64,000 bases of DNA, from the NCBI RefSeq assembly GCF_013315695.1, contig NZ_CP054353.1; one strand, 5' to 3'. Below the pieces are notes generated by a model, which did no database searches, was not told where the DNA came from, and saw only the letters and a program-made list of their open reading frames with translations. Source of the DNA: Escherichia coli (GTDB taxonomy: Bacteria > Pseudomonadota > Gammaproteobacteria > Enterobacterales > Enterobacteriaceae). How positions within the stretch are numbered: position 1 is the first letter of the stretch; each line of letters opens with the position of its first letter. Below are positions 39,093-41,493 of this stretch, piece after piece. The position numbers and the translations under genes are program-made.

Positions 39093-39106
39093 TACTGTAT
39101 ATAAAA
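39093..39106 (+). promoter_or_regulatory. Left part of a split LexA box (TACTGTATATAAAA)
   Basis: CTG half-site retained. The position where CAG should lie is now GGT of the IS end. Confidence 0.75.
39099..39106. repeat. Target-site duplication, left copy (ATATAAAA)
   Basis: Identical to 40992..40999 and immediately outside the left inverted repeat. Confidence 0.9.
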
Positions 39107-39205
39107 GGGTCTTCCCCTGTTGTGGTGGGTGGTACATAATTGAGTGATTTTCAAACACCACACAGTACCTTTATGGTGTCTCTTTTTACATGAGAGGGAA
39201 TTCTT

Positions 39206-39724
39206 ATGAGTGTGCCGCAAACAAAAGCTGAACTGCTTTTAGCTATTGATAAAAATTTTAGTAAATTAATTAGTTACCTCAACACAATCCCACCAGAAAT
39301 TACTTCAGATAAATCAATGGACGGACACGCCAAAGGAACGGAGATGAGTGTTCGTGATCTCGTTTCGTATCTGCTTGGATGGAATGCTCTTGTTGTAAAG
39401 TGGATCGCTTCTGATGCTAAAGGTCTGCCTGTCGATTTTCCGGAAACTGGCTATAAATGGAATCAGCTTGGCCTTCTTGCTCAAAAATTTTACTCAGATT
39501 ACAGTGAGTTAAGTTATGAGTTGTTAGTAGCTGAACTTCAGACTGTAAAAAATGAGATTGTGAACCTTATTAATGATCGTACCGATGATATTTTGTATGG
39601 AAGACCATGGTACACAAAATGGACGATGGGGAGAATGATCTCATTTAACACATCTTCGCCTTACGCCAACGCTAATGGAAGATTAAGAAAGTGGGCAAAA
39701 AATAATAATATCAGTTTAAAGTAA
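39206..39724 (+). CDS. ClbS/DfsB-family (DUF1706) four-helix-bundle protein, colibactin self-protection-like
   Basis: 172 aa with GAGAGGG RBS. Motifs GHAKGT..SVRDLVSYLLGW, FPETGYKWNQLGLLAQKFY, LYGRPWYTKWTMGRMISFNTSSPYANANGRLRKW match my recollection of ClbS and its family. Confidence 0.8.
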   Translation: MSVPQTKAELLLAIDKNFSKLISYLNTIPPEITSDKSMDGHAKGTEMSVRDLVSYLLGWNALVVKWIASDAKGLPVDFPETGYKWNQLGLLAQKFYSDYSELSYELLVAELQTVKNEIVNLINDRTDDILYGRPWYTKWTMGRMISFNTSSPYANANGRLRKWAKNNNISLK

Positions 39725-39742
39725 GCTTCAGAATGAAATTAT

Positions 39743-40963
39743 ATGGACGAAAAATCCCTCTATGCCCATATCCTTAACCTGACTGCACCATGGCAGGTTA
39801 AATCCCTTACCCTCGATGAAAATGCAGGTTCCGTTACTGTTACAGTCGGAATTGCTGAAAATACTCAGTTAACCTGTCCGACCTGCAGGAAATCCTGTTC
39901 TGTTCACGATCACCGACATCGTAAATGGCGCCACCTTGATACCTGCCAGTTCATGACATTAGTAGAAGCCGATGTTCCCCGCGTTATGTGCCCGGAGCAT
40001 GGCTGCCAGACTCTGCCTGTACCGTGGGCAGGTTCCGGCAGTCGGTACACTCTGCTGTTCGAATCGTTCGTGCTCTCATGGCTTAAAATCAGCACCGTTG
40101 ATGCGGTCAGAAAACAACTTAAACTTAGCTGGAATGCCGTTGACGGCATCATGACCCGCGCGGTTAAGCGAGGCCTGTCGCGGATTAAAAAGCCTTTATC
40201 AGTGCGTCATATGAATGTAGACGAAGTCGCCTTTAAAAAAGGGCATAGGTATATAACCGTGGTATCTGATCGCGACGGGCGGGCACTGGCATTAACCGAT
40301 GATCGTGGCACAGAGAGTCTTGCCAGCTATCTCCGTTCGCTTACTGACAGTCAGTTGTTGGCCATCAAAACACTGTCGATGGACATGAATGCGGGCTATA
40401 TAAGAGCAGCGCGTATCCATTTACCCAATGCGGTCGAGAAAATCGCCTTCGATCGCTTCCATGTGGCGAAGCAACTGGGCGAAGTGGTTGATAAAACCCG
40501 CCAGAATGAACATCCGCACCTCCCTGTTGAAAGTCGTCGTCAGGCCAAAGGTACCCGCTTCCTGTGGCAGTACAGCGACAAATGGATGACTGAGTCCCGG
40601 CAGGAAAAGCTGATGTGGTTGCGGGAACAGATGCAACAGACAAGCCAGTGCTGGACACTGAAAGAGCTGGCAAAAAATATCTGGGATCGCCCCTGGAGCA
40701 CAGAACGCAGGAATGACTGGTTGCAGTGGATATCGCTGGCGTCTGAATGTGATGTGCCGATGATGAAAAACGCAGCGAAAACCATTAAAAAACGGTTATA
40801 CGGAATACTGAATGCAATGCGTCATCGCGTCTCGAATGGAAATGCGGAGGCGCTGAACAGCAAGATCAGACTGCTGAGGATAAAGGCCAGGGGATACCGA
40901 AACCGGGAACGCTTTAAACTGGGAGTTATGTTCCACTATGGGAAACTGAATATGGCGTACTGA
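39743..40963 (+). CDS. ISL3-family transposase
   Basis: 406 aa. N-terminal zinc-finger-like CPTC...CPEHGC, then a DDE_Tnp_ISL3-like body. Starts 18 bp after the passenger gene. Confidence 0.9.
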
Positions 40964-40991
40964 GTCTTCCCACCATGATCGGGGAAGACCC

Positions 40992-40999
40992 ATATAAAA
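40992..40999. repeat. Target-site duplication, right copy (ATATAAAA)
   Basis: Identical to 39099..39106 and immediately outside the right inverted repeat. Confidence 0.9.
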
Positions 41000-41005
41000 A
41001 CAGTA
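40992..41005 (+). promoter_or_regulatory. Right part of the split LexA box (ATATAAAAACAGTA)
   Basis: CAG half-site retained 15 bp upstream of the sbmC ATG. The CTG partner position is ACC of the IS end. Confidence 0.75.
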
Positions 41006-41019
41006 TTAATGGGGGCGTC

Positions 41020-41493
41020 ATGAACTACGAGATTAAGCAGGAAGATAAACGTACCGTTGCAGGTTTCCATCTCGTTGGCCCGTGGGAACAGACGGTAAAG
41101 AAAGGCTTTGAGCAGTTGATGATGTGGATAGATAGCAAAAATATTGTGCCGAAGGAGTGGGTTGCTGTCTATTACGACAATCCAGATGAAACACCCGCCG
41201 AAAAATTACGCTGCGACACCGTCGTGACGGTGCCGAATAACTTTACGCTCCCCGAAAACAGTGAGGGCGTCATTCTGACAGAAATTTCAGGTGGTCAGTA
41301 TGCGGTGGCGGTGGCTCGTGTAGTCGGTGATGATTTTGCTAAACCCTGGTATCAGTTCTTTAATAGCCTCTTGCAGGACAGTGCCTATGAAATGTTACCA
41401 AAGCCCTGCTTCGAGGTTTACTTGAACAATGGCGCGGAAGATGGGTACTGGGATATCGAAATGTATGTTGCGGTGCAGCCAAAACATCACTAA
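41020..41493 (+). CDS. sbmC: DNA gyrase inhibitor SbmC (GyrI)
   Basis: 157 aa from MNYEIKQE. The ORF-track start at 40975 lies inside the IS inverted repeat and is not credible. Confidence 0.93.

Follow-up and report, generated by a model that had tools for sequence, protein, structure and literature searches.

ISEc53 occupies the dyad of the sbmC LexA box in Escherichia coli, and its transposase clade probably selects LexA operators

We analysed a 64,000-nt stretch of Escherichia coli DNA (assembly GCF_013315695.1, contig NZ_CP054353.1), here called the window, in which the gap between dacD and sbmC (gyrI) holds an insertion sequence (IS). We identified this insertion from its sequence as ISEc53, an ISL3-family element of 1885 bp at positions 39107-40991. 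It carries a ClbS-like passenger gene ahead of its transposase gene, and it lies inside the LexA box of sbmC. The features of the locus, in window coordinates, are as follows.

37836..39008, plus strand: dacD, the upstream neighbour (NCBIfam DacD equivalog, 7.9e-256)
39093..39106: left part of the split LexA box, 14 nt, box positions 1-14 (TACTGT followed by ATATAAAA)
39099..39106: left copy of the target-site duplication, ATATAAAA, equal to box positions 7-14
39107..40991, plus strand: ISEc53 (ISL3 family), 1885 bp
39107..39129, plus strand: left inverted repeat (IRL), GGGTCTTCCCCTGTTGTGGTGGG
39206..39724, plus strand: ClbS/DfsB-family (DUF1706) passenger gene, encoding a four-helix-bundle protein of 172 aa
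39743..40963, plus strand: ISL3-family transposase, 406 aa, with zinc ribbon, helix-turn-helix (HTH) and DDE domains
40969..40991, minus strand: right inverted repeat (IRR)
40992..40999: right copy of the target-site duplication, ATATAAAA
40992..41005: right part of the split LexA box, 14 nt, box positions 7-20 (ATATAAAA followed by ACAGTA)
41020..41493, plus strand: sbmC (gyrI), 157 aa, intact, with its GGGGG ribosome-binding site kept (NCBIfam SbmC equivalog, 9e-91, full length)

The ends of ISEc53 are imperfect inverted repeats, starting with GGGTCTTCCCC and closing with GGTGGG; IRL and IRR agree throughout their first 11 positions and at 18 of 23 overall. The 8-bp direct repeat ATATAAAA is perfect on both flanks. 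The transposase is of the ISL3 DDE type with an N-terminal zinc ribbon and HTH (PF01610, 1.3e-58; PF13542, 2.9e-12; PF14690, 3.3e-10), and it scored above the cut-off of the NCBIfam model transpos_ISL3 (6.1e-98). The passenger protein matched Pfam DUF1706 (PF08020; 3e-54, covering residues 1-165 of 166), is identical to PDB 5COF, and matched the ClbS structure 6ANR at 1.1e-55. A role in colibactin immunity has been proposed for this gene from structural similarity (bioRxiv 10.1101/2025.11.17.686825). The window element showed 100% nucleotide identity to copies annotated as ISEc53, those borne by fimB included, and each of 10 further ISEc53 copies that we read was base-for-base identical to it. 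The element and its passenger are already known and annotated; the new aspect is target specificity.

The initial annotation of this locus had proposed that the insertion bisects the sbmC LexA box. We found that ISEc53 sits exactly on the dyad of TACTGTATATAAAAACAGTA, a 20-mer that fits the definition of a LexA operator, a CTG-N10-CAG palindrome near TACTGTATATATATACAGTA. The in-silico deletion of 39107..40999 used there is the correct way to rebuild the empty site, as it takes out the element and one copy of the repeat; the product joins ...TACTGTATATAAAA to ACAGTATTAATGGGGGCGTCATG, giving ...CTATACTGTATATAAAAACAGTATTAATGGGGGCGTCATG, which contains TACTGTATATAAAAACAGTA. The rebuilt site thus has the perfect CTG-N10-CAG box upstream of sbmC that had been described, save that we counted 14 nt, not 15 bp, between box and ATG, a trivial difference. 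The remaining distances agreed with our own count: sbmC, whose ATG lies at 41020, starts 28 nt from the IS end and is moved 1.9 kb from its upstream region by the 1885-bp element, and the ClbS-like ATG (39206) lies 99 nt inside ISEc53. The end coordinate given for the annotated feature, 41022, is the final base of the sbmC ATG codon. The initial observation is therefore confirmed, and its interpretation is, overall, partly supported. The empty site also exists in nature: requiring a match along 80% or more of a 400-nt construct of it, we found it in 5130 of 5426 complete E. coli genomes, in a region annotated as dacD followed by sbmC.

Scoring of both junctions with a LexA matrix had been suggested as a check. 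We calculated heterology indices with a matrix built from an informally compiled list of 27 E. coli LexA boxes, from which sbmC was left out but in which the listed umuDC box is the same 20-mer. The intact TACTGTATATAAAAACAGTA gave an index of 1.0, and the left junction (TACTGTATATAAAAGGGTCT) and right junction (AGACCCATATAAAAACAGTA) gave 17.4 and 17.7, values that leave no usable operator. As had been noted, neither junction holds both half-sites: the left reads CTG-N10-GGT and the right ACC-N10-CAG. A matrix scan of ISEc53 found no LexA-like box inside it better than index 15.9. We also considered a LexA-like box made at a junction or held within the element; the matrix scores rejected it. 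Judged by sequence, the insertion destroys the LexA operator on both sides, and LexA would be unable to repress at the window locus. For comparison, the published heterology index of sbmC is 2.8, and in K-12 the gene showed a 9.5-fold lexA dependence and a 5.7-fold induction by azidothymidine (AZT) (PMC11228462).

The intact sbmC box would be the sole CTGT-N8-ACAG in the 64-kb window. Because the insertion struck this one motif, and precisely on its dyad, chance is, judged by motif frequency, excluded as an explanation of the insertion position.

A scan with the 30-nt left end of the element identified 57 loci in public metagenome contigs, and a scan of genome representatives only 2. From metagenome contigs, plasmids and genomes, we pooled 33 distinct end-flanks of ISEc53 and of two related elements, ISKox3 and ISCfr12. 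CTGT stood at exactly -12 to -9 from the element end in 28 of the 33 (background 0.0056; binomial p 2e-58), and the half-site consensus of the flanks, (T)ACTGT and then ATATATAT, equals the LexA consensus. Where both flanks were known, 21 of 23 targets contained CTG-N10-CAG (heterology index 0.9-9), and in the reconstructed targets the 8-bp duplication always corresponded to box positions 7-14. This register places the cuts directly 3' of CTGT on each strand.

The genes beside these targets belong largely to the SOS response. NCBIfam models recognised umuD (four times), a DinI-like protein, yebG and a Hok-family toxin; the last, which adjoins an open reading frame (ORF) recognised as entD, we take to be hokE, the likely candidate. 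RefSeq annotation added dinD and umuDC, and a further target was a box within IS150, where the centre ATTTGTCT is not AT-rich and the register is the same. The chromosomal umuDC box is split in 11 genomes (CE10, IAI39 and others), and the dinD box in 7 genomes that fall into three flank-identity classes. The commonest site was in plasmid DinI-like/UmuD-like operons (36 contigs), and prophage sites were also among the targets. The flanks show that insertion of ISEc53 is targeted, recurrent and fixed in register: as expected for a target-site-specific IS, independent insertions enter one motif in constant register. Strain MS 21-1 (NZ_CP146670.1) carries ISEc53 in 9 places, and its sbmC, umuDC and dinD boxes are all split, so several SOS genes would be uncoupled from LexA in this strain.

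A few insertions lie off this motif. One is the fimB insertion of many complete E. coli genomes (L073, strain 4/4; L006, L030, L041, L055), at CGATGG ATATATAT ACACTT, which lacks CTG and CAG and has an index of 10.3; another was found near fimZ. In some of the fimB copies, one side of the (AT)n duplication is shorter by 2 bp. On the Kosakonia sacchari plasmid pKS2022 (L065 3001-3662), which also bears umuDC, we observed a remnant, 93.7% identical to ISEc53 positions 1-662, that consists of the left end and the ClbS-like gene; past position 662 it has no transposase gene, and the left flank is off-motif. Two E. coli plasmid contigs (L074/L075) carry a relative whose transposase is 69% identical, beside an S24-peptidase gene, in the target TACTGT GTATATAT ATACAG. 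Here the gap between CTGT and ACAG is 10 nt and not 8, either because the AT repeat slipped once the element was in place or because a longer spacer is tolerated.

ISKox3 and ISCfr12 are ~85-88% identical to ISEc53 in nucleotide sequence of the transposase gene and have no passenger. On pNDM5_IncX3, ISKox3 lies in AGCTGT ATGCATAT ACAGTA, upstream of a DinI-like/S24-peptidase pair, and the target of ISCfr12 is CACTGT ATATATAT ACAGTC. Judged by these sites, the target preference is tied to the transposase clade and not to the passenger gene. The ends of more distant relatives were read by eye from the printed flanks, and their targets, with the transposase identity, were as follows.

Yersinia relative, 73%: four copies, all at canonical sites, one of them before dinI (Pfam DinI)
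Sodalis ISSoEn4, 71%: adjoins uvrD (Pfam UvrD)
Providencia relative, 64%: one canonical site and one half-site (the latter L081)
Achromobacter relative, 46%: left flanks fit in 2 of 3
Marinobacter copy 1, 45%: TACTGG TCAAACGT ACAGTA, before yebG (Pfam YebG)
Marinobacter copy 2, 45%: AACTGT ATGGATAA ACAGTG
Agarivorans relative, identity not directly measured: one arm, CTAT, is one base off
Thiohalophilus relative, identity not directly measured: AT-rich duplications without CTGT/ACAG arms

All the named relatives are from Gamma- and Betaproteobacteria, two classes that share the LexA operator motif CTGT-N8-ACAG; none is from a taxon with another LexA motif.

At sbmC itself, the right junction between IRR and the gene was present in 159 complete genomes, which include Nissle 1917 and its derivatives, ATCC 25922 and several lineages of enterotoxigenic E. 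coli (ETEC). The opposite orientation, with identical position and duplication, was present in 27 other genomes (B2-like strains, avian pathogenic E. coli (APEC) O78, IAI39/CE10) and in two metagenome contigs. The carriers differ in their sbmC leader or flanking alleles. We conclude that the insertions into the sbmC box are independent events. In two ETEC genomes with the same insertion (L001 3729-4201; L093 4229-4689), sbmC is annotated as frameshifted. ETEC copies of ISEc53 hold secondary IS66-family insertions (L093 245-4172; L094 2054-10172), with F-plasmid transfer genes in one, and the copy at the ETEC sbmC thus appears old enough to have collected them. Other DNA has also entered the dacD-sbmC spacer: in the O68:H12 strain 97.3 (L003 3440-3515), a prophage-like segment with a group II intron at its end adjoins TTAATGG immediately after the LexA box position, and in O111:H8 TW05614 (L092 1745-2958) IS1203 lies further upstream.

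The initial annotation had also claimed that the displaced upstream DNA of sbmC now faces the ClbS-like gene. This held: the CRP site stays to the left of the insertion, and the gene lies on the plus strand. Two features of the displaced region concern us here.

39034..39055: putative CRP-S-type CRP site, GAGTGCGAGTCTGCTCGCATAA (GAG TGCGA GTCTGC TCGCA TAA), left of the insertion, with the core TGCGA-N6-TCGCA at 39037-39052
39070..39098, plus strand: candidate sbmC core promoter, with a -35 element TTGTGG (39070-75) and a -10 element TATACT (39091-96) or TACTGT (39093-98)

sbmC is reported to depend on CRP and Sxy through a CRP-S site, by a class I mechanism (PMC1635313). In a relaxed hexamer scan combined with class I CRP spacing, the candidate promoter falls wholly to the left of the insertion. 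With the CRP-S site centred at 39044.5, class I geometry predicts a transcription start near 39106, the last base before ISEc53. On the other side of the element, scans of the right end detected no sigma-70-like outward promoter, as the initial annotation had reported for the right inverted repeat, which suggests that sbmC lacks a start of its own. We predicted no terminator-like site on the plus strand within 39107-41020, and the fold of the right end and sbmC leader RNA gave an unremarkable hairpin (z -0.77). Since no terminator is predicted, a transcript covering the ClbS-like gene, the transposase gene and sbmC is possible, and such co-transcription is plausible. We infer that sbmC would be expressed by read-through alone and would have lost SOS inducibility, while CRP/Sxy and stationary-phase input may be kept.

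A published proteome of ciprofloxacin-treated cells bears on these predictions. SbmC was strongly recA-dependent in isolate FI 24 and is missing from the complete table for ATCC 25922 and its recA mutant (PMC11039860). ATCC 25922 is of sequence type (ST) 73 and carries the window-type sbmC insertion. In the supplementary ATCC 25922 sheet (PMC11039860), the entries SbmC, 'gyrase', GyrI, ClbS and DUF1706 are all absent. The absence of SbmC fits with lost SOS induction, and as negative evidence from one condition it is no more than suggestive.

The pairing of the ClbS-like gene with sbmC looks incidental rather than like a designed operon. In our own tally, the SOS gene lies beyond IRL in 12 site/orientation combinations, such that the genes of the element are antisense to the SOS promoter (L071, L067, L040, L022, L045, L005, L050, L063, L075, L090, L091). 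The sense arrangement occurs in 3: the window sbmC copy, the Yersinia dinI copy (L079) and one plasmid variant (L044/L059). This weak antisense trend argues against a systematic placing of the ClbS-like gene under SOS promoters. We also observed a minus-strand promoter-like match, TTGAGG-16-TAAAAT (39255-39282), a consensus match only, within the ClbS-like gene and facing out through the left end; it could matter for the SOS genes beyond IRL, the majority orientation.

Together, these data are best explained, and with good probability, by a transposase that selects CTGT-N8-ACAG and so targeted ISEc53 to the sbmC SOS box, with the local consequences predicted above. The ISL3-clade transposase would select CTGT-N8-ACAG, the sequence that serves as LexA operator in Gamma- and Betaproteobacteria, and would make staggered cuts immediately 3' of CTGT on both strands, so that the central 8 bp (positions 7-14) are doubled and one half-site is left at each junction. 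Freed from LexA, the sbmC upstream region, with its CRP-S site, -35 and -10 elements and start near 39106, would drive transcription through IRL and on into the ClbS-like and transposase genes. sbmC, promoterless and 28 nt past IRR, would be reached by read-through.

Several points weigh against this explanation. The sample of sites is clonally structured (36 contigs, for example, share one plasmid site), a few insertions are off-motif, and the Thiohalophilus relative, without the arms, marks an apparent outer limit of the preference. Queries with the left junction returned 79 and 80 genomes as against 159 with the right junction, a gap that may be an effect of the search tool; of the carriers that we inspected, L001, L002 and L094 each have both junctions. 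The heterology matrix rests on an informally compiled list of boxes. The scans for an sbmC promoter gave several weak candidates, the sbmC start is known by inference only, and the insertion would divide one of the weak candidates, TTGCAA-N18-CAGTAT. All the regulatory consequences are derived from sequence. The failure to detect SbmC leans towards silencing of the gene, as a derepressed promoter with read-through should raise SbmC. Finally, the targeting may already be on record: in the open-access full text that we searched, with ISfinder outside its scope, we found no description of LexA-box targeting by an IS or of a split sbmC box in Nissle 1917 or ATCC 25922.

Of the alternatives, silencing of sbmC survives best. 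Little of the transcription that starts at the displaced promoter or within the element might reach sbmC, and the lineage would then be a functional knock-down. We regard this as a real possibility, if the less probable outcome. The unquantified SbmC of ciprofloxacin-treated ATCC 25922, set beside the recA-dependent protein of FI 24 (PMC11039860), is what silencing would produce; the frameshifts of sbmC in the two ETEC carriers are as expected for a gene free of selection, and the right end has no promoter-like site. However, proteomic non-detection is weak evidence, neither a plus-strand terminator-like site between 39107 and 41020 nor a remarkable right-end hairpin was predicted, and the window, like genomes of the Nissle and ATCC 25922 type, has an undamaged sbmC with an intact ribosome-binding site.

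It is also conceivable, though we hold it as a tentative and rather doubtful extension, that for the clade of ISEc53, ISKox3, ISCfr12, ISSoEn4 and their relatives the LexA operator is a dedicated integration site, and that its choice has a functional link to the SOS response. Bound LexA would then guide insertion or, more likely, shield the sites, and transposition would follow once LexA is cleaved after DNA damage. Each insertion would take one gene from the SOS regulon and give a derepressed promoter to the element, and in ISEc53 this promoter could drive the colibactin-resistance-like passenger.

How the transposase finds the operator allows a further alternative, in which a bound LexA dimer, or a DNA shape that LexA imposes, recruits the transposase to insert at the exposed dyad; such guidance would resemble host-protein-tethered integration. 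The sites are overwhelmingly genuine, low-index SOS operators beyond mere motif matches, and insertion is precisely on the operator dyad. The preference is kept between transposases that are only 45% identical and have diverged end repeats. Centres that are not AT-rich (ATTTGTCT in IS150, TCAAACGT in Marinobacter) are used in the same register, and every named relative lives in Gamma- or Betaproteobacteria, the taxa with the CTGT-N8-ACAG LexA motif. Against guidance stand sites that LexA is unlikely to occupy: fimB (10.3), the Providencia half-site L081 and the site near fimZ. In addition, cutting right after CTGT on each strand resembles base readout close to the active site, and LexA contacts the same bases, so that hindrance would be expected over help. 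We consider guidance by LexA unlikely. It is more likely that the transposase itself reads CTGT directly, next to the scissile bonds, because the cuts abut CTGT on both strands and because degenerate sites that LexA is unlikely to bind are used, namely those at fimB, in Providencia (half-site), in Agarivorans (CTAT arm) and near fimZ. Since all the taxa share one LexA motif, the two are inseparable by sequence. With direct readout, resident LexA, if active at all, would compete with the transposase and keep the sites covered until the SOS response is induced; competition for the same bases predicts more insertion after SOS induction.

Two further alternatives can be set aside more readily. LexA might still control sbmC through a leftover half-site or through a cryptic box within or close to the element: each junction holds one perfect half-site, and the junction 20-mers rank in the best 0.2% of all window 20-mers. 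However, the junction indices of ~17.5 exceed those of all the functional boxes in the matrix list, the best site within the element (15.9) is far from any promoter, and the half-site on the sbmC side has no promoter to repress; we judge retained control very improbable. Scarcely credible is the absence of any targeting, with a general AT-rich preference, a single sbmC insertion spread by descent or recombination, and a pattern left by selection among survivors: ISL3 elements do generally duplicate AT-rich 8-mers (the Thiohalophilus relative does only that) and many of the genomes in the count are clonal (derived from Nissle and ATCC 25922), but selection cannot fix a register to the base (positions 7-14 in 21 of 23 sites, p 2e-58), both orientations occur at the identical sbmC position, and the same junctions are found on differing flanking alleles, species and plasmids.

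Several elements are known to be target-specific: IS1397 and ISKpn1 insert in REP/BIME palindromes, the IS1111-attC group in integron attC sites, the 'res hunters' Tn5053/Tn402 in res sites, and Tn7 at attTn7. Like these, the ISEc53 clade repeatedly enters one short conserved motif in fixed register on many replicons. Unlike theirs, its motif is the operator of a global stress repressor, present across a regulon. The clade encodes no accessory targeting protein, only the transposase with or without a passenger. IS1411, also an ISL3 member, activates downstream genes through outward promoters; the right end of ISEc53 shows no evident outward promoter. As with IS insertions in promoters and operators generally, ISEc53 cuts a gene off from its regulatory DNA and may either provide transcription or capture it, but here the effect would arise from systematic target choice and not from selection on a rare event.

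The fimB insertion is a recognised marker of E. coli ST131. This fimB::ISL3-like insertion is the same element, with the ISL3 transposase, GG-initiated inverted repeats and 8-bp duplication, and it differs in that its target is one of the rare, off-motif ones. A 'clbS-like transposon' with the same passenger gene beside a single ISL3 transposase has been described on plasmids and chromosomes of ST131, ST69, ST95 and others (Maklin et al., bioRxiv 10.1101/2025.11.17.686825). Its neighbours were called 'otherwise unrelated genes', and sbmC, LexA and target choice went unmentioned; in our data the neighbourhoods share SOS operators, and the passenger-less ISKox3 and ISCfr12 use the same target.

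Elsewhere in the window there are three tRNA-Asn genes (52680-52755, 55089-55164 and 56913-56988). tRNA-Asn genes are classical island integration sites in E. coli. Neither a pks island nor other island genes were seen in the 56.9-64 kb part of the window, which holds only yeeN-, amn- and shiA-like ORFs and adhesin-like fragments.

If the targeting holds, the operator of a global stress repressor would be a new class of target for site-specific transposition, described by a simple rule: cut 3' of CTGT on both strands of CTGT-N8-ACAG. This rule would account for puzzling neighbourhoods, such as that of ISKox3 by a umuD-like gene on IncX3 NDM plasmids and that of ISEc53 by dinI/umuD-like operons on IncF plasmids, and SOS boxes on conjugative plasmids would explain how the elements arrive there. 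The SOS regulon would be rewired in two widely used strains, Nissle 1917, used as a probiotic and as a chassis in synthetic biology, and ATCC 25922, a control strain for antibiotic-susceptibility testing; in both, the gyrase-protecting sbmC lacks its LexA operator and has very probably lost LexA control. In other lineages, where the umuDC box, the dinD box or several boxes are split, mutagenesis and the responses to quinolones or microcins may change. The targeting would further suggest a hypothesis in which DNA damage, including that caused by colibactin, is linked with the movement of a putative colibactin-immunity gene and with its expression.

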